A DNA stretch of 64,000 nucleotides from contig OY968788.1 of the NCBI GenBank assembly GCA_963695435.1, positions 477,456 to 541,455 on the forward strand, written 5' to 3'. A program made the position numbers and the translations under genes. Under the pieces are notes generated by a model. The model was given only the letters and a program-made list of their open reading frames with translations, made no database searches and was not told where the DNA came from. Source of the DNA: an uncultured bacterium. GTDB lineage: Bacteria > Patescibacteriota > Kazan-3B-28. This document shows positions 4,661 through 58,557 of the stretch, one piece after another. Numbering within the stretch: position 1 is the stretch's first letter; the number at the start of each line of letters is the position of its first letter.

Positions 4661-4810
4661 TCCCCCGATTTGCTTACATCTCTTATATTACAGCATGGAG
4701 AGCCGCGGGTAATGAGTTATGAGTAATGAGGGGAAAAGGGCAGGGCCTGTCCCGTACCAGCCAACCGTAGAAAAATCGGCTTAGAGTTTTCCGGCTGGCT
4801 TGGTGCGGGA

Positions 4811-7900: not shown

Positions 7901-9745
7901 GAAACCATCACAGGATTTGCGCAAGGCATTCAGAAAAATGACCCTCCCCTAGTCTTCACTTTCAAGGCGGTAATTCGTGATGTAACCGAAAAAAAAGATG
8001 TGACAAATACCGCTTATGTTTGGGATCCGAATATTGGTTCCGATGAACAAACTTCGCTTACTTCAAGCATCCATGTCTCGCCAACTGCGGAAAAAGATCC
8101 GTTGCAGGTTGTTTCTCAAAGCCCTGCACCAAATAGTGAAAATAACGGCTTCAAACAAAGTATCATAGTTGGCTTCAACTATCCTGTGGATCCCGAACAA
8201 TTCGAGTTTTCGTTATCCAACGAATTAGGGAGCGACACCACAACCTGGGGTCAGGCTTGGGACGAGACTAATACGATATTTACACTAACCGCACCTACGG
8301 ACGATCCCCTTTATGACGGGTTCCCTGGCGAACTAGCGGTTGGTTCAACTTATACAGTCACTATTATTTCGGCTGTTTCTTCAGAGGAAACTGTCGAGCC
8401 GTTGGAGAACCCCGTCACTTGGCAATTCACCACCGCTGACCCGTGGGTCAGAATTACTTATCCTTTTAGCAAAACAAATGAAATAAGAACCAACACTCTT
8501 AGCGACCTTTATACTGTCACTTTATGGGATACCATCTCCGACCGACCGTATATCGCGGAAGAGGATATTACATTAAATGTTTCTGCCAGTTTCGGCATTC
8601 ATTCACGCGACAGCGGGAAGTTTTGGAAACGAGACAATAACAACAATCTTGTCACTTTCAATGCTGGCAATCCGTTAGTGGTCCCCGAAGGAGCCAATGA
8701 GGCTGCTTTCTACTACAAGGATTCTGAAATTACTCCCATCCCTCTCATCCCTTCTGATCCTTGGTGCGTTACGATTCTTGTCGCCGATAGTTGGCCTGTT
8801 AACCAAGATCGGGGTTGGTCTGACGACCAAACATTTGTAACCGTGGTCGATACTGAACAGCCATTGCAGTCGCTGGTAATCAATCTGCCAAGTACGCCAA
8901 TCAATGTTAATAAGTTCAGCGCCCCAATCAGAATCACTGCCAAAGATGCCGAAGACCGCTCTGAATTCTTGCCCAAAGGAAACATATACTTCTATAGCGG
9001 TAGAATTACGGGAGCATTCTATGATGCCTCACAGCGCAAACTCCCCTACTTGATAACCGCCCAAGAAGAGAGTACCGAAGTTGTGCCGCAATATATTTTG
9101 AGTGACGGAAGCAAGTCGAGCATTACTGTGTATTATCTCGATTCCCAGTCGGGTAAGAATATTATGGTGGTCGCGGATAACTCCATATATGAGCCCGATA
9201 CTGGATTCAACGATGCTGTTGCATTCTTGAATGTCGAAGAAAAACTCGAAGAAGAAGAGCTGCTTGAAGAATTGGAAGAAGTGATTGATGACACAGGTCG
9301 GGTAATTGACAAGATGGTTATCAAGCCCGTTGAAGCCCAAATGTTGCCGGGCAAAACTCAACTCTTCAAAGCAACTGCGTACGATACCGAAGGTAAACCA
9401 ATTGATAACGCCAAGTTCAAGTGGTTCGTACTAATCGACCAAAGCGGAACCATCAAGAAGGATGGTGACGATAAGACTACCCATCGGAGTACCTTTACTG
9501 CTGGCGAAGAATTGGGTACCTATTACGATACGATTCTGGTTGCTACTTTATACAACGGCAAAATCGGTTATGCGACTGCTAGTGTGGCAGTGGTAGATGT
9601 AGTTGATTACAAAGGACCACAGAGATTACCTGTCACGGGTATGAATGGACTACAATTAGTATTGATGGGTTTGACCTTGCTGGCAGCTGTCGCTCTGGCT
9701 TGGGTAGAACATTACGATAAGACACATTTTAAGGCCACAAAGTAA
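4904..9745 (+). CDS. Giant secreted BNR/Asp-box repeat surface protein with C-terminal LPXTG sorting signal (1613 aa)
   Basis: Signal peptide. At least 4 SxDxGxTW Asp-box motifs (SEDSGATWT, SSDGGANWT, TSDGGANWA, SFDSGATWL). Ends LPVTG + hydrophobic stretch + HYDKTHFKATK. Confidence 0.8.
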   Translation: MFKRLFGQRKYLSAITAGILVIQTFLPSAWGVPKVFAEDGLTYTLSFDDAADYTTDSNIAIGQDLMYFKTTWNPTTDGTELGGANDPVIDLVPDSSGTIWAVLNGGDVYYSEDSGATWTIKAITGITNTLEIAEVTYATTPGVDLVAVGETVSYSSDGGANWTGATLPVMAPTTYVAVSASSANGVAYVVTSDNPAKVLVTSDGGANWALTGQQPGTIASAIDIAWISSNIVVLVGNDGGTGGVLEYSMNPALIPWATKDLPDTEPLLTEVDYINGKIYVAGASGALDGVYIAVSTDFNPSGAWTNQSSDLVADYDLVYISDLLGNSNIPFFVGAGGDRKSAVFCSFDSGATWLEQSNTAHDDLGIAQWSALAIQPTTNWLLMGGALGGKTDIFLGKYSLASSSIVATTPIYNAVKITALSVTEHSLSNGEAKFAFSRQSTDAGEWYYYDTGASAWTADASADDSSKANTMAELTEVVLGTMLDTIPATDSALYVKIYSQNATGQMLIADSVTITYNTAVLGGGGGGTDETRPTSNINPLPRYTTVADACNPTLHVTATATDDSSGVKRVTLYVATDDDKMPTSSFGTLYYGEGVDPEWETVGWEVPVDDGKTYYFGTAAADNAGNYELKFTSKQDSYGNWIISGWSPPTTVYVYSPYLVESKPAEGEGSWPTGQPVSLEFSEYMDPGSLTYNFYSAEGEVPSSVVWSDKNEDETGAKIATITPTSNDGILLELTRYNFRIKTATDLAGNRIVDVDTHYTCELQDEIRSPLLFSFTTAKEPHPNLTSSKLQVALGSHNGKYAVGEEVEYTLYLHNTDKTVDAPSVTVTIIFVDGISYVSDNSKGGLFRKLENKGKIIGLEWTGSVLRDSVVEPKFTMRVGVDGYAAQLTVEQNMTLNDGINGDFTPSQPAIFNIVPDSLFTTSEKESNRTETVAPGAVVTYTVTIYNTGSTVGDVAISDLVPRHYDSAYDTPEFYYSDPSIDTDDKRWLDESPSWDKDTETITGFAQGIQKNDPPLVFTFKAVIRDVTEKKDVTNTAYVWDPNIGSDEQTSLTSSIHVSPTAEKDPLQVVSQSPAPNSENNGFKQSIIVGFNYPVDPEQFEFSLSNELGSDTTTWGQAWDETNTIFTLTAPTDDPLYDGFPGELAVGSTYTVTIISAVSSEETVEPLENPVTWQFTTADPWVRITYPFSKTNEIRTNTLSDLYTVTLWDTISDRPYIAEEDITLNVSASFGIHSRDSGKFWKRDNNNNLVTFNAGNPLVVPEGANEAAFYYKDSEITPIPLIPSDPWCVTILVADSWPVNQDRGWSDDQTFVTVVDTEQPLQSLVINLPSTPINVNKFSAPIRITAKDAEDRSEFLPKGNIYFYSGRITGAFYDASQRKLPYLITAQEESTEVVPQYILSDGSKSSITVYYLDSQSGKNIMVVADNSIYEPDTGFNDAVAFLNVEEKLEEEELLEELEEVIDDTGRVIDKMVIKPVEAQMLPGKTQLFKATAYDTEGKPIDNAKFKWFVLIDQSGTIKKDGDDKTTHRSTFTAGEELGTYYDTILVATLYNGKIGYATASVAVVDVVDYKGPQRLPVTGMNGLQLVLMGLTLLAAVALAWVEHYDKTHFKATK

Positions 9746-9769
9746 TGAGTATTGGGTAATGAGTTATGA

Positions 9770-10372
9770 GTGATGGGTAATAAAAAGCCCGCAGGGCTAC
9801 CGACACTCACAACGCACAACGCATTACTCTCTGTCCCTTACTCACAACGCACAACTACTTCTATGAACAAGGTAATGTATCATTTACGGAGGAACCGAAA
9901 CTACAGCTCACATGAACGGTGGGGTGTGTTTGCCGGACTTTTTATATTGACCTTAGCTGTCACGGCTGGCGGATGGTTGCTCTTAGGTAAACCCGCTTCT
10001 TCAGCCGCATCAGTGACGGTGACAGACATCAAACTATCACAGAATACTCTACCGATTGGGATTGATTCCGAAGGCACTGTCACACTGACTTTGGCAAACA
10101 AGGAAACAACCGAGCCAGCAGAAGGTGTTTGGGTTGGGTTGCGCGTTCCCCTATCCGAACTGCGTACTCCACAATTTTCTTATTACGATTGGTACAGTCC
10201 TGAAAGTGAGAGAGCGTTTTACCAAACTGATACAGTAGGAAAAGTTGTTTTTCCGCTAGCATCTTTGGTGACGGGAACGATTGAATACGAAATCTATACC
10301 GCCAATCCAGAACTGGCAAATGATGCGAAATACCAATCGCTGAATCAGAAATTTACAGTAAGTTATGAATAA
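9770..10372 (+). CDS. Hypothetical membrane protein (true start probably internal, near 9863 or 9875)
   Basis: One predicted TM (VFAGLFILTLAVTAGGWLLLG). The annotated start lies inside a heptamer-repeat tract. Confidence 0.45.
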   Translation: MMGNKKPAGLPTLTTHNALLSVPYSQRTTTSMNKVMYHLRRNRNYSSHERWGVFAGLFILTLAVTAGGWLLLGKPASSAASVTVTDIKLSQNTLPIGIDSEGTVTLTLANKETTEPAEGVWVGLRVPLSELRTPQFSYYDWYSPESERAFYQTDTVGKVVFPLASLVTGTIEYEIYTANPELANDAKYQSLNQKFTVSYE

Positions 10373-10913
10373 TAAGTTTGTAGAGAGTAATAAGTAGTTG
10401 GTAGTTGTCATGCTCGAACCCGACTTGTCGGGGGAAGCATCTATTATAGATTCTTCCTAGCGTCAGAATGACAAAAGTGGTGTGGATAACGAAAAAATCT
10501 TTTCGCTTCCAGACCGCACTTTTAACCCAAAACACCTCTTATCTATTGCCAAAGGCAATGTTTTAGAGTATATTGATATAATTTGGTGGTGACATTGACA
10601 ACTTGAACGGAGAGTAACGGAAATTGTCGCGATATCTTTGGTCTATAAGTCTATCGTCTATTAGTCCATTGTCTATTGCTCCAATTCCCGCTACTGTCCC
10701 GCGGGGCGCATAGTAAAAGTCTAGGTTCGAAAGATTCTAGGCACAAAACTAAAACAAAAAATGCCCCATACGTTTTTCTTCCTTCGGGGGGAATGCGGCG
10801 GAATGGTCTCTGGGGTTGTACCTCAAAGCCGGCCTAGGGCGCTTCATATTTTATATAAGCGACCAAAATAGGTCGGCTTTCTTTTTGTGTATAAGTCCTT
10901 TGTGGTAGAACTA

Positions 10914-11865: not shown

Positions 11866-12167
11866 AATATCGCTTATTTACCAGATATAATTTTCAAGAT
11901 GCGCCATAGCTGGATGCCATAGCTTTAATCCCCCAACGACCATTTTAAGCAATAGGAATCATAGTATTGAACCATAATCCCGCCTAACGGTTGATTATAT
12001 CATAGTGAATGTTGGTCAATCTGACACCATCAAAAACAGCCCCGACAAGTCGGAGAATGACAAAAAGATGGAGTCTCCTCCATAACCCATGATTCCTAAT
12101 TCATGATTCTAGCCAGATTTTTCCCCCTCCCATAATCCATAATTCGTGATTCATGATTCTAGCCCCC

Positions 12168-12524
12168 TTACTGTGGGAGCTGATTTAGCAAATCAGTCGC
12201 AGCCTCTTTGGCGGAGGGGTCGGCATCGCGCACTTTTTCTAGCTGTTGTCTAGCTGCATCAAACCGACCCAACCCAGCCAGTACTTCAGCACGATACAAT
12301 CCAACAGTCGAATCATATTTGCCCCAAGCAATGGCTCGGTCAATCAGGTCGAGGGCTTCAGCGTACTTAGAAATGTCATCATTGTCACGACCAATTAAAA
12401 AGGCGTCTGTGGATTCAACAACCAGTTGGTTGGCTACACGGGGTCTCCACCAATAATATCCGCCGGCAGCAAGCCCGCCGACAATGATAATTAGCCCAGC
12501 TAGTCCAATTAGTTTCTTGTTCAT
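12168..12524 (-). CDS. Small membrane-anchored TPR-like protein (118 aa)
   Basis: N-terminal TM followed by helical repeat sequence (AEALDLIDRAIAWGKYDSTVGLYRAEVLAGLGRFDAARQQLEKV). Confidence 0.55.
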   Translation of the reverse strand: MNKKLIGLAGLIIIVGGLAAGGYYWWRPRVANQLVVESTDAFLIGRDNDDISKYAEALDLIDRAIAWGKYDSTVGLYRAEVLAGLGRFDAARQQLEKVRDADPSAKEAATDLLNQLPQ

Positions 12525-12578
12525 AGAAAAAAATGAATTATGAATAGTGAATTATGAATTATGGTTAGAAGTAACGCA

Positions 12579-12968
12579 TTACGGACGGACGAATGATTTG
12601 GAGCTTTTGATGAGACCGCTGATTAACTTGTGTACTGTGACGGCTTGATTGGCTAGTGGGTCAAACTGGGACTGGACAACATGTCCGATGTCTCGTGCAA
12701 CCAGCAGTTGATTTTGCAATTCCGTCACAGAGCCTTGAGAGATGGAGTAGAACTGGACTTTTTCCCGATACGATTGTCGACTAAATCCTTCAGCTAGATT
12801 GGAGGTAATGGATACTGCACACCGTTGCATTTGGCTGATAAGCCCATAAGTCTCGTTGGCAGGAAAGGTTTTGGTCAGGGCATAAACCATAATAACCAAC
12901 TTGTGCCCCTCTTGCCAAGCATTCAGGTCCGTAAAGCTCTTTATCCTCCTCTCCCCCTCTTGATTCAT
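12579..12968 (-). CDS. Four-helix-bundle protein (TIGR02436 / 23S rRNA IVS protein family; Avd-like)
   Basis: Characteristic NAWQEGHKL...EGFSRQSYREKVQFYSISQGSVTELQNQLLVARDIG sequence of this family. Confidence 0.8.
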   Translation of the reverse strand: MNQEGERRIKSFTDLNAWQEGHKLVIMVYALTKTFPANETYGLISQMQRCAVSITSNLAEGFSRQSYREKVQFYSISQGSVTELQNQLLVARDIGHVVQSQFDPLANQAVTVHKLISGLIKSSKSFVRP

Positions 12969-13013
12969 GATTCCCTCCCCTTGCCCATGATTCTTGATTC
13001 GTGATTCATGATT

Positions 13014-14213
13014 CTAGCTGACAACAACGTTCCAGAAAATTCCAGTAGGTCCAAACCACTTCACATACTCGGCTACGGGGCGGACATAGAATTTGTAGAC
13101 AGTACCAGAAACGGCAGTGGTAGGAATAGTGATTTTGAACTTGAAGGTATGGGACAAACTGGTTCCTGTGACGGAGTCTATTTGGACAATTCGGTTCGAA
13201 GTGAGCCAAGATGCGTCTTTAAGCGGAGATGCGTTATCTTGAGGCATCCAAGTGCCTAATTTGATGATGTGGGCGGCATCGGGAGTGGTGGGATACCACC
13301 ATGCTTTGCCGATGTTTTTGAGCGTTAGTTCTAAATCAACGGTAGAGCCGGCTGTACCATGAATTTCGTGGGCTGTTTTGTCTGCTGACAAAGTACCGCT
13401 TTGGCTTACCCATTGGGCGCGATAATCAAATGTCCACGGGTTTATTACTACTGGCGGAGTTGCTGGAGTAGGTTCCACCACGGGTGGGGTCACAACTGGT
13501 GACGGAACAATCGGAGCTTTCAAAGTTTTGCCTGAAATAATTATCGGGTCTCCGAGATTACCAACTACGTCTTCGGGCACTAAACGATAAAAATAAGTTG
13601 TATCTGAAGATAAACTTGTGTTTGTAAATGTTTGTGTTAGACCAGAACCCCCTACTATCTGGCCAATTGGTGTAGTGGCAGAGTTGAATGCATCCTGCGA
13701 TGTACCGCGATAAATATTCACTCGATAGAAATCATCAGCGACTGGGTTAATCCAGTATAAACCCAACGAACTACTAGTAGCAGATTTGACGCTAGCGTTG
13801 TCCACTGGCACGGGCGCGGAAAGATCATGGGGTTGAGCGGGATACCCCTGGGTGAGAACTGTGGGGGAGCTTTCGTTCCCCGCCGTATCAACGGCGGTGA
13901 GTTTGACCCAGTAGATTGTGTTATAAACAAGTTGATCGATGATGTACTCCCCTTTTTCATTGGGATGGAGTTGTGCAGAGTCGGTGACTACACGTTTACC
14001 AAAAGAAATTGGCGGATCGGCAGAGAAATAAATATTGATACCAGCCAGAGCAGAGTCGTTGGGATTCACCCAATAAATTGGTAACTGATACATACCATCC
14101 GCACGGTTGATTCTGACACTGCAAGGAGCAGTAATAGAAGCATGAACGGATGTTGGTGTGGTGAGGCTAACAATTGCACAAGCGATAATGATGGGAAAGT
14201 ATGAGAGTTTCAT
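13014..14213 (-). CDS. Secreted FN3-domain protein with conserved C-terminal ~85-aa module (399 aa)
   Basis: Signal peptide. Two FN3-like segments (YWVKLTAVDTAGNES; YFYRLVPEDVVGNLG). Pro/Thr/Val linker. C-terminal LGTWMPQD...SWLTSNR...YVRPVAEYVKWFGPTGIFWNVVVS module shared with the S8 protease. Confidence 0.7.
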   Translation of the reverse strand: MKLSYFPIIIACAIVSLTTPTSVHASITAPCSVRINRADGMYQLPIYWVNPNDSALAGINIYFSADPPISFGKRVVTDSAQLHPNEKGEYIIDQLVYNTIYWVKLTAVDTAGNESSPTVLTQGYPAQPHDLSAPVPVDNASVKSATSSSLGLYWINPVADDFYRVNIYRGTSQDAFNSATTPIGQIVGGSGLTQTFTNTSLSSDTTYFYRLVPEDVVGNLGDPIIISGKTLKAPIVPSPVVTPPVVEPTPATPPVVINPWTFDYRAQWVSQSGTLSADKTAHEIHGTAGSTVDLELTLKNIGKAWWYPTTPDAAHIIKLGTWMPQDNASPLKDASWLTSNRIVQIDSVTGTSLSHTFKFKITIPTTAVSGTVYKFYVRPVAEYVKWFGPTGIFWNVVVS

Positions 14214-19137: not shown

Positions 19138-20130
19138 CTATCTAAGCGATGAATTTTGGTCGCCTTCGACCCAAGATAGATTGTTATCAACGGAATTGCT
19201 ATCTAAGTTATTGGCTTCCCAAATCAGCTGACCAGCAATGGTCAGTTTGGTAAGCGAGATGGTGTCGCCATTGAGAATTCCCGAAACAACAGCGCGAGTG
19301 GAACCCATATAAGAAATAAGATTGATAGTGGAGCCGACTAGGAAGTAGCGTTTTTCGCCGACCATCAAGGTTGGTTTGGCAGTGAAGCTGCCGATGGAGC
19401 CCGATAGTGTGACAAAACCGCTAGTAGGAGTGGCGACGATAGGATTGGTGTCAGCTGGTTTGTCGGTAGGCAGAATCAATTTGTCTAGCTCATCTCGCAT
19501 TGCCAGTACTGTTTTCTTCACTTCGTCGTTACTGATAGTTCCTTTGGCAATAGTGGAAAGGGCTGTCTTTTGGGATTCGATAACAGCCTTCAATTTAGTA
19601 TTCAAATCTTTGTCATTGGGCAGAGAAGAAAGGCTGGCTTGGGCACTCGCCAAAGCCTTTTTAGATTCATTCAAAGCAACCGATAATGTCCCGCTGCCAG
19701 CATTTTCTAACGCCTTGATACGATCATTTACAATATTCAACTTGAGAGTCGCCCGATTGGCTGGGTCTGTGGTCAAGGCAATCTGGACGGTCTCAAGCGC
19801 CTTGCGAACGCCGAACAATGGATCCCCCGGTTTGGCTGACTGTGCAAAAGCACCTGTAGCAAATGTAACAACAAAAATCGCTAGCACCATACCGGCTGTG
19901 GCGGGAATGCCAAAGGAAATACTCTTCGGACGGAAAAGTCTTTGGAGTGTGGAAAGTGGCATTACTAAATCCTCTGCCTCGGTCTGGGTGGCAACGGCAT
20001 CAATCAAATTGACCTGTCCCATTTTCTTAAAAAGCTGGTCGCGGATTTTCTGCCTCTGTGTAATAGATAAACGAGCATCCTTGCCTAGAATGCTTAGTTC
20101 TTTGATCAAATTGTCGTGATTAGTGGACAT
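19138..20130 (-). CDS. Putative anti-sigma factor (cytoplasmic N-domain, single TM, extracytoplasmic domain)
   Basis: Architecture and position directly downstream of the ECF sigma gene. TM segment GMVLAIFVVTFATGAFA. Confidence 0.5.
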   Translation of the reverse strand: MSTNHDNLIKELSILGKDARLSITQRQKIRDQLFKKMGQVNLIDAVATQTEAEDLVMPLSTLQRLFRPKSISFGIPATAGMVLAIFVVTFATGAFAQSAKPGDPLFGVRKALETVQIALTTDPANRATLKLNIVNDRIKALENAGSGTLSVALNESKKALASAQASLSSLPNDKDLNTKLKAVIESQKTALSTIAKGTISNDEVKKTVLAMRDELDKLILPTDKPADTNPIVATPTSGFVTLSGSIGSFTAKPTLMVGEKRYFLVGSTINLISYMGSTRAVVSGILNGDTISLTKLTIAGQLIWEANNLDSNSVDNNLSWVEGDQNSSLR

Positions 20131-20392
20131 AGAGTGTAGAGAGTAGAGCGTAGAGAGTAGAGGGCAGAGATTAGAGTATAGAGAGTGGAGAACAGGGATA
20201 AGACAATAGTTATAAAAAATTCCGCAAATACTTTTAAGAAAATAGAGATGTTCCCCATTTTCCCAAAAGCTCTTGCGGAACCCTTAGGAGGTATTTAAAG
20301 TTGTGTTTGTTTTTTCTGGATTCCCGGGTCAAGCCCGAGGATGACGGAGAGAGGTGGATCCTGAATCGAGTTCGGGATGACGAAAGAAAACT

Positions 20393-21013
20393 CTATTCTC
20401 TATTCTCTATTCTCTCGTCTCTGCTCAAGGTATCCTTGAGTTTTTTGAGGGCGCGCGAAGTAAGAGCTCGGATGTTATCCTCCTTCTTCTTCATTGCCTG
20501 CGCGACCTTTGCGATGGACAGCTGTTCCACGAACCGAAGCCGTAATACTTTTTCGTATTCTTCCGGCAAACTCTTTAGTGCGTTTTCAATTTCGCTCGCC
20601 TCGCGGTAGAGCTCTGGTCCTTCAAGGTCCGCCATTTCCGGCAAGTCCTCGAAAGAAAGTTCTGACCGCTGATTCAAGCGATAGTAATCAACGACACCGT
20701 TTCGGGCAATGGCGTAAAGCCAACTGCTGAAACCAATTCCCGTTCGTGGTTTGTATTGATGAAGTTTCTGCCAAGCTTTTAGAAAAATATCAGCGGTGAT
20801 GTCCTCGGCCACCGGAACCGATTTTACTTTGGTGTAAACGAAGCGATAAACCTTGCCAGCCCAAATGTCGTAGAGCTCGCCAAATGCTTGTTCATCGCCA
20901 CCCAAAGCTTTTGAAATCAGTTGTTGGTCGATAGGAGAAACCGACTGTTCGATTGGGGTCGAAAGTTCGTCGGCAGAAAGATCTTGTTGTGAGTCAAATT
21001 GCAGGTCAGGCAT
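20393..21013 (-). CDS. ECF-type sigma-70 family RNA polymerase sigma factor
   Basis: Region 2 (GDEQAFGELYDIWAGKVYRFVYTKV...DIFLKAWQKLHQYKP) and region 4 HTH (SIAKVAQAMKKKEDNIRALTSRALKKLK). Confidence 0.85.
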   Translation of the reverse strand: MPDLQFDSQQDLSADELSTPIEQSVSPIDQQLISKALGGDEQAFGELYDIWAGKVYRFVYTKVKSVPVAEDITADIFLKAWQKLHQYKPRTGIGFSSWLYAIARNGVVDYYRLNQRSELSFEDLPEMADLEGPELYREASEIENALKSLPEEYEKVLRLRFVEQLSIAKVAQAMKKKEDNIRALTSRALKKLKDTLSRDERIENRE

Positions 21014-21376: not shown

Positions 21377-22225
21377 TCATTCAGTGACGGTGTTGGCCTG
21401 ACCATTGCGATTCTGGGTTTGGGTCTCGGTTTGGGTTTGAACTCCCGTACCTTGACCGGCACCACTTGGGCTAAGCGCACCTTCGCCGAATTCATTTCTG
21501 ATTTCATTGCGAATCTGCTCCATTTCTTGCTGGTTTTCCTGTGTCCACTGTTGAATACGTTGGCGGATTGGATTGCCAGTACCAGAATATGGCTGGGATT
21601 CGACTGTTTCCAGCCGAGCTTGCCGACGTGCTTCCACCGTTTCAAGGTGAGTAATCACTTTTTGATAAGCGGTCTTTTGGGCTTCTTCGGTAGCAGTACC
21701 AAGCTTTTCTTCAAAACGAGCTTGAACCTCGTTTATCTTGGCGATGCTTTCGCTCAACCGAGTGATTGCTTCCTGATGACGCTCTTCCCAACGCTCTTTA
21801 AGTTTGGCTTCGAGCTGGGCGGGGTCGGTTTGGCGAATTTTTGCTAATTCCGCTAACCGCTCTTCGGAAAAACGAGCCATAAGACGGGCTTTTCCTTCGG
21901 TGTTACTGGTCATTCTTTCCTGTACCCGCTCCATCCATTGGTCAACTGCATAAAGCGAGTCGCCGGGAGCAGCGGTGTTGGCCATTGCGGCTGTTCCGCC
22001 ACCAAGGGCAAGAACTGCAGCAATGATGATTGGTATGATTGGCATTGCGAACCTCCTAGGATAAAAAATATGACTGATACGATGATTATTGTTCCGATAT
22101 GCTCTGGATTTTATTACATCTAAAAGTTCAAACCGCAAGGCGGTTTTTTCGCCTGCGGATAGAGTAAAACGCTCCCCCGCTTCGCGGATTAGCTCTTGAA
22201 TCTGTTTATCGGATAATCTGGTCAT
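21377..22225 (-). CDS. Putative anti-sigma factor / membrane protein with coiled-coil, Q/E/R-rich extracytoplasmic domain
   Basis: N-terminal cytoplasmic segment, TM (IIPIIIAAVLALGGGTAAMA), downstream of the second ECF sigma gene. Confidence 0.5.
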   Translation of the reverse strand: MTRLSDKQIQELIREAGERFTLSAGEKTALRFELLDVIKSRAYRNNNHRISHIFYPRRFAMPIIPIIIAAVLALGGGTAAMANTAAPGDSLYAVDQWMERVQERMTSNTEGKARLMARFSEERLAELAKIRQTDPAQLEAKLKERWEERHQEAITRLSESIAKINEVQARFEEKLGTATEEAQKTAYQKVITHLETVEARRQARLETVESQPYSGTGNPIRQRIQQWTQENQQEMEQIRNEIRNEFGEGALSPSGAGQGTGVQTQTETQTQNRNGQANTVTE

Positions 22226-22315
22226 GGAAGTGAATTGTGAATTATGAATAACGAATTATGGAGAGGGATATAAGGGGAACCAGTTGATTGTCGCGCCCTG
22301 TCATACAGCCATGAT

Positions 22316-22846
22316 TCATGATTCTCCATTCATGATTCTCCTCATTTTGTCTAATCCTCTTTTGACGATTACTCGGACGGAATTTTCGGTTTTTCCGGTC
22401 AATTCGGCGATTTCAGAATATTCCAGCTCGTCGAGAAAACGGAATTTGAGAATCGTTTGGTACAGCTCGGGGAGGCGGTTTAGCTCGGCAACAACGATAT
22501 CCATATCTGATTTTGTCTCCGCTTCTGCCTGTATGTCCGTTTTTCCAGCCAAATCTGTTACAGCATCCAAACTGGCGGTAGTTTTGTGAGAGCGGTAAAA
22601 ATCTATGAGGGTGTAGCGGGCAATCGAGAAAATCCAAGTTTTGAAGCTCCTTTTGCCGTCGTATCTCTTAATCCCCTCCCACGCCTCAAGAAAAACTTGG
22701 CTGGTCAAATCTTGGGCGTCTTCTTTACTCTGCAATCTGAAAGCGAGGAATTTGTAGATGGAGTCGGCGAGAATATCAAAAATCTGGGCATACGCCTCCG
22801 CATCTCCGTTTTTCGCCTTGATTGCTAAATTATTTAGAATAATCAT
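22316..22846 (-). CDS. ECF-type sigma-70 family sigma factor (second copy)
   Basis: Region 2 (GDAEAYAQIFDILADSIYKFLAFRL...DLTSQVFLEAWEGIKRYD) and region 4 (SEIAELTGKTENSVRVIVKRGLDKMRR). Confidence 0.85.
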   Translation of the reverse strand: MIILNNLAIKAKNGDAEAYAQIFDILADSIYKFLAFRLQSKEDAQDLTSQVFLEAWEGIKRYDGKRSFKTWIFSIARYTLIDFYRSHKTTASLDAVTDLAGKTDIQAEAETKSDMDIVVAELNRLPELYQTILKFRFLDELEYSEIAELTGKTENSVRVIVKRGLDKMRRIMNGES

Positions 22847-22957: not shown

Positions 22958-24163
22958 CTAACGGGATAAATTCTTTATAGCCCCTTTTATGACTCCCCCG
23001 CCCAAACAAGTTTGCTTATCATAAATAACCAAAGATTGGCCCGGAGTCAAGGCGCGTTGAGGTTTGTCGAAGATGAATTGCCAATATTTATTCTTCTGAA
23101 TCAGCTTCCCAGAGTAGATATCAGGACCATAACGGGGCTTGGCACTTAGGGATTTAGCGGGTAAGCGGGTAAGCGGGTTAGCCGAAGGTGTTATTTTTTT
23201 GTTTTTTGTTTTACTGACCTGCTGACCTGCTGACCTGCTGACCTGCTGGATAAGGTGGAGATTTTCTAGAATTACTCCTTTGGCGTAGGTAGCGGAATCA
23301 GGCCCGACAATGACCAGATTTTTCTTTATATCCGTAGCGACAACATAAAGCGGTTCGGGCTGACCCGCTAAACCAGCGATTCGGCGCTGACCGATAGTGT
23401 AAAACCAAGAACCTTCATGTTCGCCCAGTATTTTCCCTTTTTGGTTGACAATTTTACCTTTTTTGGGCTTGATGACGGTTTTCAGAAATTTTTTTACATC
23501 AATTTGACCGATAAAACATATTCCCTGACTGTCTTTTTTGGTAGCAGTTGGGAGTTTAAACTTTTTGGCGAGTGCTCTGACCTTTGATTTTGGATACTGA
23601 CCGACAGGAAAAAGAGTTTTCGAAAGCTGTTCTTGGGTTAGGTTATAGAGAAAATAGGTCTGGTCCTTGATGGGGTCGTTGCCCTTCAGGAGTCGATAAT
23701 TGACTGTACCGCCCTTCGCTAAAGCTACGGAGCGGTCTTCAGGGTTTCGCTTTGATGGAAGCTCAACCCTTCGAGCATAATGGCCGGTAGCGATAAAATC
23801 CGCTCCCAGAGCTAAACATTTTTTCAAAAATAGGTCGAATTTAACTTCTTTGTTGCACATCACATCGGGATTTGGCGTTCGACCTGCTTTGTATTCGGCA
23901 AAAAAGTAATCTAGAACTCGTTTTTTGTATTCTTTTTCAAAATTGAAGGTGTAATAGGGGATGTCTAGGCGTTGGCAGACAGCGCGAACATCCGCAAAAT
24001 CCTCTTCGGAAGTGCAAAATCCGCCCGGAACATCATCTGACCAGTTTTTCATGAAAACACCGACTATGTTGTAGCCTTCTTTCTTCAGTAATGCGGCAGC
24101 AACAGAGGAGTCCACTCCCCCGCTCATCGCCACAAAAACAGTTGGTTTTTCGCTTTTTGTCAT
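22958..24163 (-). CDS. mnmA: tRNA-specific 2-thiouridylase MnmA, with ~40-aa low-complexity insertion encoded by octamer tandem repeats
   Basis: PP-loop SGGVDSSV, catalytic Cys motifs. In-frame tandem (ctgacctg)x4 and (gggtaagc)x3 at 23154-23250 encoding QQVSRSAGQQVSKTKNKKITPSANPLTRLPAKSLSAKP. Confidence 0.9.
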   Translation of the reverse strand: MTKSEKPTVFVAMSGGVDSSVAAALLKKEGYNIVGVFMKNWSDDVPGGFCTSEEDFADVRAVCQRLDIPYYTFNFEKEYKKRVLDYFFAEYKAGRTPNPDVMCNKEVKFDLFLKKCLALGADFIATGHYARRVELPSKRNPEDRSVALAKGGTVNYRLLKGNDPIKDQTYFLYNLTQEQLSKTLFPVGQYPKSKVRALAKKFKLPTATKKDSQGICFIGQIDVKKFLKTVIKPKKGKIVNQKGKILGEHEGSWFYTIGQRRIAGLAGQPEPLYVVATDIKKNLVIVGPDSATYAKGVILENLHLIQQVSRSAGQQVSKTKNKKITPSANPLTRLPAKSLSAKPRYGPDIYSGKLIQKNKYWQFIFDKPQRALTPGQSLVIYDKQTCLGGGVIKGAIKNLSR

Positions 24164-24237
24164 TCTGAACGTAGTGAAGAATCTATGAAGATATTATAGA
24201 TCCTTCGTCCTGCTGTACAGCAGGACTCGAGGATGAC
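24159..24237. repeat. GTCATTCTG-family modular hairpin element (MITE-like); its terminal GTCAT supplies the mnmA ATG on the minus strand
   Basis: Near-identical inverted copy at 27715-27792. Related copies at 595-618, 10407-10472, 33419-33508, 34711-34825, 39701-39758. Confidence 0.7.
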
Positions 24238-25314: not shown

Positions 25315-25338
25315 AAATTGATTCTAGTATATTTTTAC

Positions 25339-25895
25339 GACCGCAACAACGTTGAGGCGGAGCGCAACGACGTTGTAGGTCCCCCACTTTTTTTCGCCGT
25401 AGTGGCGAAAAGCTTGGGCGCAACGACATTGCGGTCGGCACTTACGCGGTGGCGTAAAAAAAAATAAAAATTGCGATGATGATTGCTAGTGTAAGCATAT
25501 AACAGTCCCCTACCGCAACGTTGCGGCGGAGCGCAACAACGTTGCAGGTGTGTTATAACAACATTGTACCAGCGACCGCAACGACGTTGCAACCCCCTTC
25601 TTTTTTGGTGTGTCAATTTTGTGCCGTTCGAGACGCCTATATATAAATATATAATATAGTAGCTGGTTTCTTGGAGTGGCTCGACCGCAACAACATTGTT
25701 GCGGTAGGTGGGTACGACCGCAACGGTGTTGCGGTTGACCGCAACCGTCATGTTGCGGCGGAGTGTTTTGACATGGCGGTGATAAAAATGTTGTAATAGC
25801 GGTTTTTTAATGTGGATAAAAATAAAGTTGGCTCTGCTACTATATTATTAACCTACCGCAACGTTGCGGTAGGTGACCGCAACAACGTTGTAACA
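25339..25895. repeat. Array of at least 11 degenerate palindromes of consensus (A/G)CCGCAAC-N0-4-GTTGCGG(T/C), often as pairs ccgcaacNNgttgNggcggagcgcaacNNcgttgNagg
   Basis: Read directly at 25339-25378, 25417-25436, 25511-25548, 25572-25590, 25682-25760, 25852-25895. Three more copies at 27611-27705. Confidence 0.75.
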
Positions 25896-25976
25896 TCTTG
25901 AAGGATGGTATTTTTTATGGTGTAGTGGAATTTGTGCTAATTTTTTGTTATTTTGTTTAGTTTTTTATTCTTTTTT

Positions 25977-26758: not shown

Positions 26759-26985
26759 TCAATGCTCCAATGGCGGACAGGGGAGACCGAGATTTTACTC
26801 CCTGGCCGGGCAGGCAATTGATTGCATTCCTCCTCCTATGGCAGGAAGAAGAGACAACGCTATCCATACCGGTCAATTTTGCGACCAACAATCCCTATTT
26901 GCTCAATGGGTGCAGAAAACAGGGTAAAGAGGGGATTTTTAGATGCTAGTCGCTGGGTACTAGATGCTAAATCGTGGGGGATTTG

Positions 26986-27021
26986 GGTATAAAAAGAGCG
27001 CTCACCCCGAAGGATGAGCGC
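26986..27021 (-). terminator. Strong rho-independent terminator on minus strand (gcgcucaucc-UUCG-gggugagcgc + UCUUUUUAUAC)
   Basis: 10-bp stem with UUCG tetraloop followed by a U-run when read on the minus strand. Confidence 0.6.
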
Positions 27022-27400
27022 AACGAACCGGTCACGAATGCGTGTGAGCTTATTGTGAGGAAGGCCACACGCCGACTGAAAAGAAGCAAGACGGGTCGGA
27101 ATGAAGCTTCAGGGATGGGCACAAGACCGATAGAAGGTATCGGCTGAAGCTGTTTCCGGAAGCCCGTATAGGTACAACACCCAGACAGACAATGCTCTGG
27201 CGAATGGATGGGTGTTGTGGCGGTAAAGTAAGAGCTCCACAGCGAACGAGGCGAGTGTAGCTGGGACGAAAGGGTAGCTTACTAAGGCCTACATCGCCTC
27301 GTTCGCTGCTGCTCCGGGGGAAACATCCACCGAAGCCTAAACGAAACATAGCGACAACCCACGTAACGTAACCTTCTGTATCCCTGGCGGCTGGTCAGAC
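27022..27400 (-). ncRNA. Candidate structured RNA (~380-420 nt, class unassigned) ending at the 26986-27021 terminator
   Basis: No credible ORF. Multiple long perfect or near-perfect stems visible (27237-27308 cagcgaacgaggcg-gtgtag...ctacatcgcctcgttcgctg; acaacaccc/gggtgttgt; gcttcag/ctgaagc; ccgatagaaggtatcgg). 5' end not determined. Confidence 0.35.
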
Positions 27401-27610
27401 CAGCCTGCATATATTGAAAACTGTCTCGTCCTCTTCTGGAAGCTGGGAGAGAAACTCGATCCCGTAAATCGAACTCTCCCTCCTTTGTTAAAGGAACAAA
27501 AAAGGGATTATCAAAGTTCTCGGGAACGCTGGCTGCTCGTAGATTTATTACAACACAGAAAAGATGAATTATGAATAATGAATTATGAATTACGGGCGAA
27601 ATAGGGGATA

Positions 27611-27705
27611 CCGTAATGTTGCGGTGGAGCGCAACACCGTTGCGGTACTCGATTGTTTTTCTGCTTCCAGAGCCAAAAGTACGACCGCAACATCGTTGCG
27701 GTCGG
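27611..27705. repeat. Three further CGCAAC..GTTGCG palindromes (second arm of the array)
   Basis: ccgtaatgttgcggtggagcgcaacaccgttgcggtac and acgaccgcaacatcgttgcggtcgg. Confidence 0.7.
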
Positions 27706-27714
27706 GTTTTTGAT

Positions 27715-27792
27715 GTCATCCTCGAGGTCGCCATGGCGACTGAAGGATCTATGGAAAAATCTTCATAGATTCTTCACTTCGTTCAGAATGAC
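27715..27792. repeat. GTCATTCTG-family hairpin element, inverted copy of 24159-24237
   Basis: Reverse complement is about 85% identical to the 24159 copy over about 80 nt. Confidence 0.7.
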
Positions 27793-29541: not shown

Positions 29542-29619
29542 GGGGGTAGAGTTTAGAGATGAGAGATGAGAGATGAGAGCGAAAAAGACTCTACTCTCTA
29601 TTCTCTACTCTCTGTTTAC

Positions 29620-31477: not shown

Positions 31478-33409
31478 ATGAAACAAGGGGGTAAATTTGG
31501 TGCTTTAACCGCCGCGACAATCGCGGCGGTAGTGTTGGCGCCAATAGTTTTTACAATGGCGGAAGGAGAAACCCCGTCAGTAATTATTAACGAGGTGGCG
31601 TGGGCGGGAAGTACGAAGTCGAGCAGTGATGAATGGATTGAATTGAAAAATACCACCAGCGAAATCGTTGATGTGAGCGGTTGGCAATTAACCAAAAACA
31701 CTGGCGAGGAAGCGCTGATGCTCACAATCCCAGCCGACAAGACGATTGATGCTGATGGTTATTTTTTGATTTCCAATTTTGATGAAGCGAATTCAGTTTT
31801 GACAATTGTGCCCAATGTGGTGGACTCGGCAATCACACTTTCCAATGACAAATTGCAAATCAAATTGTACAAAGGCGATTGGAAGTTGCCTGAAAATTTG
31901 ATTGATACGGCGGGTGATGGGGGAGTCCCGCTCGCAGGAAACAATACAGCAAAAAGTTCGATGGAAAGAGACGATGATTTGAACGGATGGCATGATGCGT
32001 TGGCGGGAGTGAATTTGGATGCGGATGTGACGGACCTCGGAACACCCTCCGCTGAAAATTCTAAATTGATTGAACCTCCGACCGTTGAAAGTATTTCGCC
32101 AAACACCGCCGAGGCGGGGAAGACTCTACAAATCGAAAGTATTATCGGAACGAATTTCAGTACTGATTCGCCTCCAACTGTGCAGTTGAAATTAGCTGAA
32201 CGCACTATTACCGCCGACAATACTCACACCGCAAATTCCACTTTGATTGATAGTGGGCAATTCGGTTTGGAGGGAGCGGAGGCGGGGAAGTGGGATTTGG
32301 TAATTACTAATCCTGATGGAACAACGGCGACATTACCTCAAGCGGTGGAGATAACCGAACCGCCACCTGAATATGATTTGACCACCACGGTGCGGTTGAA
32401 CGAAATCTATCCTCAACCCAATACCACCAGCAATGATGAATTCATTGAGTTATATAATTCCGGTGACAAGACGGTGAATTTGAGTGATTGGATTTTGGAT
32501 GATGTTCGCAACGGCGGATCCAGTCCGTTTACTTTTGGCGCGCAAAATATTTTGCCCAAAAGCTACTTAGTGCTTTACAAAAGTGAAACAAAAATCACGC
32601 TCAACGACAGCGGGGATGATGTTTATTTGCTCCAGCCAAATGGTTTTGAATTGGACCACACAACATACACGGAGGCACCGCGCGGACAAACCCATGCGCG
32701 GTTTGATGACGGTTGGAAATGGACTAACTCACCAACGCCCAATGGCAAAAATGTGTTGAGCACTCCGCCTCCGCCAGACACGGAATCGTCTCCCGTGGAT
32801 GAACCAGACGACACGCCAGTTGAATTACTGGCATTTCAAAAAAGCGATATTTTGATTACCGAATTATTACCCAACCCAGTGGAAGATGAGGAATTTATTG
32901 AACTGCAAAATAATTCTTCCAAGCCGATAGATTTGAAGAACTGGGTATTGCAAGACAAGTCGAAACACAAATATAAAATCGCTGACTTTGCCGTCAGTAT
33001 CCAAACCGCCAGTGGTCTTATTATTCAGCCCCAGCAGTATGTGGTGATAACGGAAATAATGTCATCCATTGCGTTGAATAACACGGGCGGGGAGACGGTG
33101 ACATTGTTTGATCTTAGCGGAAATATCATTTCAACTGTGAGCTATTTGGATAAAGCACCGGCTGGCGCAGTGTACGCGTGGGATGGGAAGGTTTGGACTT
33201 GGAGCAAATACGCCACACCGGGACAAGTGAATATTTTAGGTTTGGACGAAGCGGATGAGCCACCTCCCGCGGTAGATATTGTTTTGCCCGCTTCACTACC
33301 CGTGACAGGAGAATCGAGTCGGCGTTGGATAGGGATTTTACTTATCGGTCTCGCGCTAGGTGCTATAGTGATTTGGAGAAAGTTACGAGTGATGAGTTGT
33401 GAGTTGTGA
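31478..33409 (+). CDS. Secreted surface protein with three lamin-tail domains (LTD) and C-terminal LPXTG sorting signal (643 aa)
   Basis: Three LTD signatures (INEVAWAGS...EWIELKNTT; LNEIYPQPN...EFIELYNSG; ITELLPNPV...EFIELQNNS). Ends LPVTG + hydrophobic stretch + WRKLRVMSCEL. Confidence 0.8.
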   Translation: MKQGGKFGALTAATIAAVVLAPIVFTMAEGETPSVIINEVAWAGSTKSSSDEWIELKNTTSEIVDVSGWQLTKNTGEEALMLTIPADKTIDADGYFLISNFDEANSVLTIVPNVVDSAITLSNDKLQIKLYKGDWKLPENLIDTAGDGGVPLAGNNTAKSSMERDDDLNGWHDALAGVNLDADVTDLGTPSAENSKLIEPPTVESISPNTAEAGKTLQIESIIGTNFSTDSPPTVQLKLAERTITADNTHTANSTLIDSGQFGLEGAEAGKWDLVITNPDGTTATLPQAVEITEPPPEYDLTTTVRLNEIYPQPNTTSNDEFIELYNSGDKTVNLSDWILDDVRNGGSSPFTFGAQNILPKSYLVLYKSETKITLNDSGDDVYLLQPNGFELDHTTYTEAPRGQTHARFDDGWKWTNSPTPNGKNVLSTPPPPDTESSPVDEPDDTPVELLAFQKSDILITELLPNPVEDEEFIELQNNSSKPIDLKNWVLQDKSKHKYKIADFAVSIQTASGLIIQPQQYVVITEIMSSIALNNTGGETVTLFDLSGNIISTVSYLDKAPAGAVYAWDGKVWTWSKYATPGQVNILGLDEADEPPPAVDIVLPASLPVTGESSRRWIGILLIGLALGAIVIWRKLRVMSCEL

Positions 33410-33418
33410 GTGAGACTC

Positions 33419-33508
33419 GTCATTCTGGTAAGGTCGCCGTGGCGACCGCATCCAGAATCTTATAAGATCCTGGACAAGCCCGCCTACCGGCAGGCAGGCC
33501 AGGATGAC
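33419..33508. repeat. GTCATTCTG-family hairpin element carrying the cccgcctaccggcaggc sub-hairpin
   Basis: gtcattctgg...ccagaat...ccaggatgac architecture. The same ggtaggcggg sub-hairpin occurs inverted inside the 25977 element. Confidence 0.6.
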
Positions 33509-34054: not shown

Positions 34055-34681
34055 ATGATAAATAAATTGTCAAATAATGTACTGGGGATAGATACTGCGC
34101 AGGCTGAAACTGTCATCGGGCTCAATGATGATGTAGTGAGTTGGGTGTCTGACCGCAACCAATCCAAAGAACTTTTACCCGCAATCGATAAACTGATTCG
34201 GTCACAAAAACTAACTCCACAGAAACTTCGCGGGGTGGTGGTGAATATCGGGCCCGGTTCTTTTACGGGACTTCGGGTGGGGCTGACTGTCGCCAATGGT
34301 TTTGGATACGGACTAAAAATTCCGTTGGTCGGGATGAGCGAATTTGATGTAATTCGTTTGTTTTTCCCGAAAGTCGATTTGATAATTTTGGATGCGAAGC
34401 GGGATGAGCTTTTTGTGGAAGTAAAAAATCAGACGCCAAAATTGATACCCATCGCAAAACTTGGAAGGCTAATCAAGCGGGGAGTGAGTGTGTATGTTGA
34501 GCCTAGTTTAGCGCTGGCACTTCACCCGCAACTCTCCAAGGCAGGAACTATTTATTTGGGTGAGATTCCGCGGGTACAAAAAATGGCGGGAATGCTTTCC
34601 GCCACTAAACTTCCGAAAAAATTTGTTCCTGTAATGCCTCTCTATTTGCGCGGAGCGAATATCACAAAGGCTAGACGATAG
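34055..34681 (+). CDS. tsaB: tRNA threonylcarbamoyladenosine biosynthesis protein TsaB (YeaZ-like)
   Basis: LGIDTAQAETVIGL... Kae1/YeaZ N-terminal fold. Start at internal Met after the repeat sequence. Confidence 0.8.
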   Translation: MINKLSNNVLGIDTAQAETVIGLNDDVVSWVSDRNQSKELLPAIDKLIRSQKLTPQKLRGVVVNIGPGSFTGLRVGLTVANGFGYGLKIPLVGMSEFDVIRLFFPKVDLIILDAKRDELFVEVKNQTPKLIPIAKLGRLIKRGVSVYVEPSLALALHPQLSKAGTIYLGEIPRVQKMAGMLSATKLPKKFVPVMPLYLRGANITKARR

Positions 34682-34710
34682 ACTAATAGACTTATAGACG
34701 AATAGAGTTT

Positions 34711-34825
34711 GTCATTCTGAACTTGTTTCAGAATTTTTTTCTATTGTCATCCTCGAGGTCTGCTGTACAGCAGGCCGAAGGATCTAGAAGAATAATTCAT
34801 AGATTCTTCGCTCCGCTCAGAATGA
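34711..34825. repeat. Complete GTCATTCTG-family element (two-hairpin form, termini gtcattctgaac / gctcagaatgac)
   Basis: Contains both the gtcattctgaacttgtttcagaat hairpin and the gtcatcctcgagg...cctgctgtacagcagg module. Confidence 0.7.
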
Positions 34826-39670: not shown

Positions 39671-39767
39671 TTTTTATTTTAGCTTTTCTTTTTCTTTTTT
39701 GTCATTCTCTGGCTCGACCAGAGAATCCATGGATCCTCCGATCAAGTCGGAGGATGACAAAGGGGGA

Positions 39768-58525: not shown

Positions 58526-58557
58526 AAATTATATCAACTTATCAATGTTGTCTGCAG

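Follow-up and report, generated by a model that had tools for sequence, protein, structure and literature searches.

What are the tandem arrays of seven-base units that lie at gene ends in a candidate division Kazan genome, such as those at 20131–20420, between an extracytoplasmic function (ECF)-type sigma-factor gene (20393–21013, − strand) and a DUF5667 gene (19138–20130, − strand)? The DNA analysed here, called the window, is a stretch of 64,000 nt corresponding to positions 477,456–541,455 of the forward strand of contig OY968788.1 (assembly GCA_963695435.1), ~90% of which is open reading frame (ORF), and its host is an uncultured groundwater-type bacterium of the candidate division Kazan lineage (Patescibacteria, or candidate phyla radiation, CPR). 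A preliminary description had portrayed the tracts as stop-codon arrays acting in all three frames. The answer that we favour, with moderate confidence, is that they are the arms of small inverted-repeat stem-loop inserts resembling the 'intervening sequences' (IVS) of 23S rRNA, and that the stop codons they carry are a survival filter and not their raison d'être.

The seven-base period stands out clearly in the window. An autocorrelation scan evaluated against dinucleotide-preserving shuffles detected 16 period-7 tracts, compared with 0.85 in the shuffles; periods 4, 5, 10, 11, and 13 gave one tract each and periods 6, 8, and 9 five to six; all periods that are not multiples of 7 yielded 0–7 tracts, and the multiples 14 and 21 were also raised. 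Tandem Repeats Finder (TRF), which provided a second list and had been proposed as a check in the preliminary description, returned about 20 period-7 arrays of 2.6–8.9 copies in this window. Every tract listed previously was recovered, at coordinates that were exact or off by a few bases; the 'dozens' spoken of there are actually about 20, all of them within the first 35 kb, the tight operons at 40–64 kb being free of any, and the tagacNa tracts, taken as strict 7-mers, have a period of 7–8. In the merged scan, 13 of 15 tracts were intergenic or lay across a gene end although ~90% of the window is ORF (binomial probability near 1e-11), bearing out the assertion that the tracts sit at gene boundaries and are not equally common within ORFs. 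The two internal tracts are a T-rich run within an in-frame insert of mnmA and a tract in ORF 27282–27734. The latter ORF is probably not a gene, because the homologous stretch of relative L002 (the relatives' loci are labelled L001–L008) has stops in all frames, and it was set aside as a case of a tract inside a gene. Thus, the window tracts have both properties of long simple-sequence repeats (LSSR), namely head-to-tail short units beyond chance and, for units whose length is not a multiple of 3, confinement outside coding DNA (13 of 15 outside or at ORF edges), the exceptions to this exclusion in relatives being in-frame, stop-free inserts. The spacer between rny and the M16 peptidase gene is also 78 nt long in an independent assembly (Logan contig of ERR12035938), and the tracts are therefore not an assembly artefact.

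None of the stop codons TAA, TAG, and TGA contains C, whereas the start codons ATG, GTG, and TTG and the Shine-Dalgarno (SD) sequence all require G. The sense-strand composition of the tracts follows this asymmetry: those located after a stop codon are C-poor and purine-rich (21 of 22 have G>C), and those located before a start codon are G-poor (all 16 have C>G), as expected for an insert that ends the upstream ORF and offers no false starts in either orientation. All three sense frames are closed in 14 of the 22 post-stop tracts (5.6 when shuffled; P<0.0005) and at least two frames in all 22, with 86 stop trinucleotides where composition predicts 71, and at least seven genes take their own stop codon from a tract (9743, 10370, 13014, 20393, 22316, 33407, and 34679). 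Among the pre-start tracts, all-frame sense stops occur in just 2 of 16, and start codons are absent against 5.1 expected (P=0.003). Random perfect heptamer arrays reach all-frame stops on either strand in 54–69% and on a given strand in 35–46% of cases. The earlier claim of a stop in every frame is borne out on one strand only, in most of the post-stop tracts and in few of the pre-start ones; that stops occur 'on one or both strands' is true as a property and weak as evidence, random arrays often having it. The underlying arithmetic, that 7 is coprime to 3, is correct.

The two kinds of tract belong together. C-poor and G-poor arms are mutual reverse complements at a 4-base core (GAGT/ACTC, GAAT/ATTC, and AGAG/CTCT), next to which stand ~3 variable bases, and a strict automatic count of adjoining tracts gave the order C-poor then G-poor seven times and the reverse order once, at two adjacent inserts. 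The layout of an insert, read on either strand, is 5′-(C-poor arm, GAGT/GAAT/AGAG+NNN)-core-(G-poor arm)-3′, and because this order holds on either strand, the gene-boundary rule is reproduced for every gene arrangement. The core may be nearly empty (9 nt at rny/M16; a small hairpin at 9782–9803 in another insert), may consist of hairpins resembling repetitive extragenic palindromes (REP), of the GTCATYC type, together with a native spacer (20131–20420), or may be a gene of the IVP/S23p family (12533–13016). In array-only inserts as well as in the IVP cassette, GAAT-type arms have a common inner end, ...GAATYATGG, and the imperfect inverted arms constitute terminal inverted repeats as in miniature inverted-repeat transposable elements (MITE). 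The arms outside the sigma-factor and IVP loci are as follows.

1087–1120, + strand: C-poor arm, TAGACnn(n), period 7–8, directly after the smpB stop.
4709–4731, − strand: arm with GAGTnAT on the + strand, G-free on the sense strand of the Kelch-repeat gene 2006–4660, whose start lies ~50 nt downstream of it.
9741–9860, + strand: complete insert, comprising a C-free arm GAGTnnT (stop 9743–9745), the GCCCGCAGGGC hairpin, and a G-poor arm CACAACG / CATTACTC that ends 2 nt before the ATG at 9863.
10360–10406, + strand: degenerate C-free period-7 arm containing the stop 10370–10372, followed by GTCAT units.
10641–10678, + strand: G-poor arm GTCTATn, the right-hand partner of the 10360 island.
27559–27595, − strand: G-free arm, sense ATAATTCAT..., in a probably non-coding stretch; 92% identical to the G-free arm at 12528–12564.
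29547–29613, − strand: minimal insert separating rny from the M16 peptidase gene; its sense strand reads (AGAGnnT)3 - 9 nt - (CTCTCAT)3.
33381–33412, + strand: C-poor arm GAGTnnT with the TGA stop of an LTD protein gene, followed by the GTCAT-unit doublet 33419–33508; tsaE, which comes next (ATG 33524), lacks a G-poor arm and is preceded by an SD of its own.
34672–34706, + strand: C-poor arm TAGACnnn at the tsaB stop, followed by GTCAT units.

The insert at 20131–20420 contains no ORF and encloses a piece of DNA that is older than its arms; a second sigma-factor/DUF5667 junction lies nearby.

20131–20200, − strand: pre-start arm of the DUF5667 gene; ~10 AGAGnnn units on the + strand, equivalent to G-poor CTCTnnn-type units on the sense strand; abuts the ATG.
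20209–20289, − strand: native spacer within the arms, CCTAAGGGTTC...TTTTGGGGA...GGAATTTTTTAT, with a hairpin of ~33 bp.
20318–20381, − strand: two REP-like palindromic units, GTCATCCTCGGGCTTGACCCGGGAATCC (20318–20345) and GTCATCCCGAACTCGATTCAGGATCC (20356–20381).
20391–20422, − strand: post-sigma-factor arm, sense AGAGACG AGAGAAT x3 (+ strand CTCTATT x3.6), supplying the last residues and the TAG (20393–20395).
22230–22262, − strand: G-poor arm before the second DUF5667 gene (21377–22225).
22309–22343, − strand: C-poor arm in which the second sigma-factor gene (22316–22846) has its final codons and TGA stop.

The G-poor arm 20131–20200, which has no ATG, GTG, or TTG on the sense strand, is placed between a conserved TTTTTTAT and the ATG, a site where L002 has no tract and L004 has a different 7-mer (ATTCACn). 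The opposite arm (20391–20422) has sense stops in all three frames and none antisense, and the C-termini of the sigma factors differ from those of array-free orthologues (for the 20393 gene, that of L002). The spacer motif is kept in L002, L004, L005, and L008, arrays present or not, and minimum-free-energy folding of the window sequence yields its ~33-bp hairpin; the spacer could act as a regulatory RNA or serve the sigma/anti-sigma-like pair as an operator. At the second junction, where the genes overlap in L002 (ATGAATAA), GAATCAT/ATAATTC inserts are present both in the window and in the much more distant L005, and an insert of another type in L007.

Comparison of related genomes, likewise proposed in the preliminary description, found inserts to be absent, or built of other 7-mers, at the same junctions. 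The window RNase Y is 98%, 93%, 93%, and 89% identical to those of four uncultured Patescibacteria genomes (the rny of L001 being the 98% match), and its identity to the enzymes of candidate division Kazan genomes, the complete CP011216 among them, is 75–79%; gene order is kept, so that orthologous junctions can be compared. L002 and L003 lack nearly all inserts, and the same genes abut or overlap there. Between rny and the M16 gene, L002, L003, and L005 have a stop-to-start gap of 2–10 nt and no insert, the window has a 75-nt insert, and L001, in spite of its near-identical rny, has a 190-nt insert of quite different 7-mers and GTCATYC-type units. Gain, loss, or replacement is also seen at both sigma/DUF5667 junctions, at LTD/tsaE, at M16/ndk, and at the tsaB 3′ end, and a 207-nt composite is present twice in L001 in copies that are 98% identical. 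No IVP gene was found in the rny loci of the relatives.

Inserts also occur inside a gene. Arm-core-arm structures stand in frame at three sites of mnmA (L004, L005, L007, and L008, with a period-8 form in the window), adding 10–60 residues while the ORFs stay open; their units are stop-free (GAGTCGC instead of GAGTGAC) and are read as the peptides VASRESRV..., VIPASEPESRQKN..., and SLVTRHSSL.

23144–23250, − strand: in-frame, stop-free hairpin insert in mnmA, period-8, (CAGCAGGT)4 - A-rich loop - (TACCCGCT)3.

A second in-frame mnmA insert of the window, at 23693–23773 (residues 131–157), contains the reverse complement of a CCCTTCGCTAAAGCTACGG-type palindromic unit, a unit that is intergenic in L001, L004, and L007.

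One insert of the window carries a gene, whose surroundings are as follows.

12080–12164, − strand: two C-poor arms that follow the stop of the tetratricopeptide repeat (TPR) gene 12168–12524 and have the sense GGCTAGAATCATGAAT...ATGG.
12533–12563, − strand: G-free arm, sense ATAATTCAT..., which follows the IVP gene and directly precedes the TPR ATG.
12579–12968, − strand: cargo gene for a four-helix-bundle IVP/S23p protein (PF05635, TIGR02436), with its ATG in the upstream arm.
12958–13016, − strand: C-poor arm, sense GCTAGAATCATGAATCAC..., giving the fn3 gene its TAG (13014–13016) and the IVP gene its SD-like GGAGG and ATG.

The product of 12579–12968 matches PF05635 (2e-34), TIGR02436 (5e-32), and PDB 2GSC (7e-20). 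Its start signals lie in the C-poor arm, the G-poor arm follows ~15 nt past the TAA, and the two arms, 12533–12563 and 12958–13016, are complementary at their cores and at the ATGG end. This insert, alone in the window, thus combines a PF05635/TIGR02436 ORF with terminal inverted repeats around it, as in IVS; like all the others, it lies between or inside protein genes and not in a 23S rRNA gene. A diversity-generating retroelement was considered for this gene and excluded, there being no reverse transcriptase around it.

The association of IVP genes with heptamer arrays extends well beyond the window. In 62 distinct loci with IVP relatives, drawn from metagenome contigs, 143 period-7 tracts were counted, compared with 10–23 for periods 5, 6, 8, 9, and 10, and a period-7 tract lay within 60 nt of 81 of 114 IVP gene ends (71%) but of only 30 of 180 other ORF ends (17%) of the same loci (p=6e-21). 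Upstream of the IVP gene (within 200 nt), a C-poor tract was present in 36 loci and a G-poor one in 6, and downstream a G-poor tract in 42 and a C-poor one in 1, mostly 0–40 nt from the gene ends, both characteristic tracts being present together in 24 of the 62. This polarity is reversed with respect to that around host genes, indicating that the IVP gene is cargo inside the insert. Among plasmids, an IVP relative occurs in 27 records, 24 of them cyanobacterial, and complementary heptamer arrays flank the cyanobacterial copies on both sides in 8 of 12 (e.g., GGGAGTA/CCCTACT in Nostoc edaphicum). Arm identity is 0.60 within the same cassette and 0.52 between IVP cassettes, a weak difference because most cassettes have the GAAT core in common. 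In viral contigs of IMG/VR with five GAATNNN units, a complementary ATTC array was found downstream in 11 cases and upstream in 1 among the matches listed, and period-6 and period-8 controls gave 0–1 inverted partners among the matches listed; the inverted-partner analysis alone is informative in these scans, raw counts being silent on a preference for period 7.

Several of these loci deserve separate mention. Heptamer-flanked four-helix-bundle genes of plasmids lie at 692–1048 in L455 (Picosynechococcus), 407–766 in L462 (Pseudanabaena), and 395–763 in L456 (Nostoc edaphicum), their sites being cas10/cmr3, cas6/cas4, and two ribonucleotide reductase subunit genes, respectively. A minority of IVP loci (L439, L441, L442, and L462) have long direct, not inverted, arrays on both sides (e.g., CCAACAG or AAAGCYA), and there it looks as if the gene stood within one long array.

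Taken as arms of stem-loop inserts, the tracts would be accounted for in the following way. Inserts are gained, lost, and replaced fast. In this compact genome, a ribosome entering from either side would meet the C-poor arm first, where the period of 7 would place stops in every frame, and the arm leading into the next gene would offer no start codon, rendering the insert translationally harmless. Copies inside genes would have lost their stops and have their arms translated, and at the ends of several genes the stops serve as real stop codons. Our inference is that these are selfish or near-neutral elements whose arms are shaped by selection on translation. The period itself is by default attributed to polymerase slippage (Mrazek et al., as cited in PMC4679880). 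The absence of tracts in relatives, the stop-free copies in mnmA, the stop-poor pre-start arms, and the inverted-repeat nature of the arms jointly suggest that stops are a condition of tolerance at gene ends; it is most likely that the stop codons, although real and strand-specific, act as a tolerance filter rather than being the purpose of the tracts.

A number of observations weigh against the interpretation of the tracts as insert arms. No target-site duplication is visible when filled and empty sites are compared, and Pfam searches of the window revealed no transposase, integrase, RAYT (IS200-like tyrosine transposase), or reverse transcriptase. The arms at 20131–20420 enclose a conserved spacer that pre-existed them, which a single cut-and-paste insertion fails to explain, and arms within one island are sometimes non-complementary, as in L001. 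The clustering of variable positions in three adjacent phases is significant but modest (77% vs about 70%), and the array classes were curated in part by eye. Finally, the 1.1 Mb surrounding 134 GAATNNN arrays of viral contigs among the matches listed contained no IVP-like ORF, and arrays therefore exist without a nearby IVP gene.

Among the other explanations, the one that survives best, though we regard it as unlikely, is that the paired arms are functional RNA stem-loops in the operon transcripts, where they would be processed by RNase III (or RNase Y), stabilise the RNA, or act as attenuators, much as is envisaged for REP elements and for the S23p/IVP-bearing IVS of 23S rRNA, whose bordering inverted repeats are cut by RNase III (PMC4990558). 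The arms do fold as interrupted helices (z-scores of −4.0 at rny/M16, −2.7 at 9738–9863, and −6.2 for the whole 298-nt sigma/DUF5667 spacer), and IVP genes are positioned in the loop. However, another fold reaches only −1.3, the 5-bp helices are separated by 2x2 loops at which the variable positions are systematically mismatched with no compensatory pattern, the arms of some islands are not complementary, and relatives do without the inserts. Moreover, when the hairpins of the two strands are compared, the sense one proves the weaker in 12 of 15 inserts (9 of 9 if intergenic inserts alone are counted), as expected if G has been removed from the sense pre-start arm (e.g., ATGATTC to ATAATTC), which speaks against an mRNA hairpin as the selected feature. 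Rfam searches over 9–40 kb, at gathering thresholds and at E<=1, gave only tRNAs, tmRNA, and chance matches to microRNA hairpins; over 9–23 kb, the sole insert-linked terminator-like site was the core hairpin 9786–9798, on the antisense strand, and no promoter excess was seen.

Quite unlikely, in our estimation, is the proposal that the arrays are periodic protein-binding sites, presenting a 4-base core every 7 bases to a pentameric IVP/S23p protein or, as has been proposed for TAACTGA repeats, a translation factor, an interaction that would maintain or even generate the arrays. The conserved core followed by ~3 variable bases and the strong tie of IVP genes to arrays would fit such a role, as would the homology of IVP to Avd, which in diversity-generating retroelements is associated with nucleic acid and polymerase (PMC10053308), and the placement of pre-start arrays at the position of the ribosome-binding site, as in Beggiatoaceae (PMC4679880). 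Against this, several unrelated cores coexist within one genome, the window has a single IVP gene but ~20 arrays, the viral-contig arrays have no IVP gene nearby among the matches listed, and most window genes lack an SD sequence, with arrays or without.

The role suggested in the preliminary description, that the tracts are kept as frame-independent translational stops against read-through or frameshifted ribosomes, we judge to be very unlikely. The excess of sense stops after genes is real, and several genes end within a tract; yet the other half of the tracts, the pre-start arms, mostly lack all-frame sense stops, L002 and L003 manage without tracts at the same junctions, the arms inside mnmA are stop-free, and random heptamer arrays close all frames of a strand at the considerable rate given above. 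That the tracts are ordinary slippage-made simple-sequence repeats, confined to non-coding DNA by purifying selection, is similarly improbable, since, although heptanucleotides are the commonest long simple-sequence repeats in many prokaryotes according to the summary of Mrazek et al. (2007) in PMC4679880 and are excluded from genes because 7 is not a multiple of 3, slippage alone neither predicts inverted complementary arms with one fixed polarity nor explains the shared inner arm ends, the distant near-identical copies (12528–12564 vs 27559–27595), the 207-nt duplicate of L001, or the 12-fold enrichment at IVP gene ends, and the units differ at three positions, unlike fresh slippage products.

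The interpretation as stem-loop inserts invites comparison with known repeats. Heterocystous cyanobacteria have heptanucleotide repeats, termed STRR and reportedly described by Mazel and colleagues in 1990, with unit sequences of their own; to our knowledge, their origin has never been explained. The tracts studied here resemble STRR and LSSR in being tandem 7-mers of several unrelated units per genome, nearly all intergenic and strain-variable, and differ in host (CPR) and in units (GAGTnnn, GAATnnn, and AGAGnnn), which are not known to be among those of STRR. A further difference is that the window arrays form inverted pairs of fixed polarity wrapped around IVP genes, REP-like units, or spacers, an arrangement that we did not find in descriptions of STRR or LSSR. 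Tentatively, and as a proposal that we consider possible but doubtful, bacterial heptanucleotide arrays, STRR included, may represent one unrecognised class of stem-loop cassette, whose full form would carry the IVP gene and whose ORF-less pairs would be non-autonomous, translationally silent derivatives, with the pentameric Avd-like IVP recognising the arms or helping to build them.

Closest in placement are the TAACTGA repeats of Beggiatoaceae, Cyanobacteria, and Bacteroidetes, located few bases upstream of starts at the SD position, limited in placement by the stops of their forward orientation, and missing from relatives at the same neighbourhood (PMC4679880). Heptamers just before starts, stops that limit their position, and absence in relatives are common to both systems; in TAACTGA repeats, however, the stop-bearing orientation precedes the starts, whereas the pre-start arm here is G-poor and stop-poor, and only one inverted pair has been reported for them (PMC4679880). 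TAACTGA arrays themselves were absent from the TRF output of the window. Closest in content is the IVS of Leptospira and Coxiella 23S rRNA, regarded as selfish and of sporadic distribution, in which a PF05635 ORF likewise occupies the loop of a terminal-inverted-repeat stem (PMC4990558). In contrast to the 28-bp near-perfect stem of the IVS, the stems here are heptamer arrays with periodic mismatches, and most of the inserts, which lie at protein genes, have no ORF; no rRNA gene is present in the window. Rickettsia palindromic elements and MITE-like repeats (PMC10969869) are also small palindromes, both intergenic and translated in frame within housekeeping genes, but the resemblance to the former is one of behaviour only, without sequence relation, and the tandem 7-mer arms here are accompanied by neither a target-site duplication nor a cognate transposase in the window. 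With REP/REPIN elements (PMC3116915), the comparison concerns the GTCATYC units, which in the window are short, imperfect, intergenic palindromes with a conserved 5′ tetranucleotide and form inverted doublets at 33419–33508, 39701–39758, and 24159–24237; the window has no RAYT, the heptamer arms have no REP counterpart, and in relatives the units also stand in frame in mnmA. Heptanucleotide repeats between genes have been described before, as have their absence from coding sequence and the constraint that their stops place on where they can lie (PMC4679880). In our literature search, no paper tied heptamer repeats to CPR bacteria or to IVP genes, and the occurrence in CPR, the fixed-polarity inverted pairs, the in-frame copies, and the cross-phylum association with IVP were not found.

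The GTCATYC family itself consists of 25–45-nt palindromes, GTCATYC...GRATC(C/T), often followed by AGAMAAAAA and often in inverted doublets, with about 15 units in the window, all of them intergenic, as is characteristic of short extragenic palindromes.

595–620, 10448–10472, 20318–20381, 24159–24237, 27715–27792, 33419–33508, 34746–34826, and 39701–39758: GTCATYC-family units.

L001 (12985–13130) and the viral contig L085 contain GTCATTCCCGCGAAGGCGGGAATCC. At the second sigma/DUF5667 junction of L008 (18049–18396), a GIY-YIG nuclease gene (Pfam 1e-12) has been inserted, flanked by CCCGGGTCAAGCCCG-type palindromes whose core is near-identical to window 20318–20345 and whose ends are GGACC/GTCC, not GTCATCC. 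Because it lies between near-identical palindromic units, this nuclease is a candidate for the mobilising enzyme of GTCATYC-type units.

Further repeats and genes were noticed in the window. A third repeat family comprises palindromes ACCGCAAC-N3-6-GTTGCGGT, in at least 8 copies at 25338–25896 and 27605–27712, inside ORFs 25335–25751 and 27282–27734, both without a Pfam match; these repeats also occur downstream of ndk in L001 and L002. The stretch 26950–27560, ~600 nt of non-coding DNA conserved with L001 and L002, across part of which an ORF is interrupted in L002, may be a structured RNA gene; it has no Rfam match at E<=1. Two stretches 25.7 kb apart are similar over 396–523/26076–26203 (128 nt at 78% identity) and over 309–362/25968–26041 (34 nt at 94%); each of the two stretches starts with GTCATGCTYGAGC units, and Pfam gave no match for the small ORFs nearby. 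A direct repeat of 95 nt (57768–57862 and 59409–59503; 97% identical) is found next to tRNA-Glu and tRNA-Gly, which belong to a cluster of six tRNA genes (57923–59645). The tmRNA gene (1595–1958, minus strand; Rfam 140 bits), ~500 nt downstream of smpB (645–1085, +), has an unusual tag peptide predicted by ARAGORN, ANAFGGLRTANAFA.

As to translation starts, only about a quarter of the window genes have an SD-like motif, most being without it whether or not arrays are present, and many have a TATAAT-like box, some TG-extended, 7–20 nt before the ATG and no SD sequence, for which reason their mRNAs are suggested to be leaderless or to have very short leaders.

46870–47700, 47710–49926, 50096–51001, 52294–53076, 53931–55439, and 56382–57290: genes with a TATAAT-like box upstream.

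For those who annotate such genomes, the practical consequence is that ORF calls are lengthened or shortened by the arms, since it is often the repeat that provides the stop and the apparent start, and that conserved enzymes of metagenome-assembled genomes acquire repeat-derived peptides such as VASRESRV and VIPASEPESRQK. The arms, with their fixed polarity, provide a testable rule by which selfish DNA may do no harm between genes that overlap or are tightly packed, and the inverted heptamer arrays are the first candidate nucleic-acid partner for the IVP family, in both CPR bacteria and cyanobacteria. Altogether, these inserts may join the questions of why 7-base units dominate among the simple repeats of some bacteria, what the IVP/S23p proteins do, and how CPR genomes tolerate invasion by repeats.

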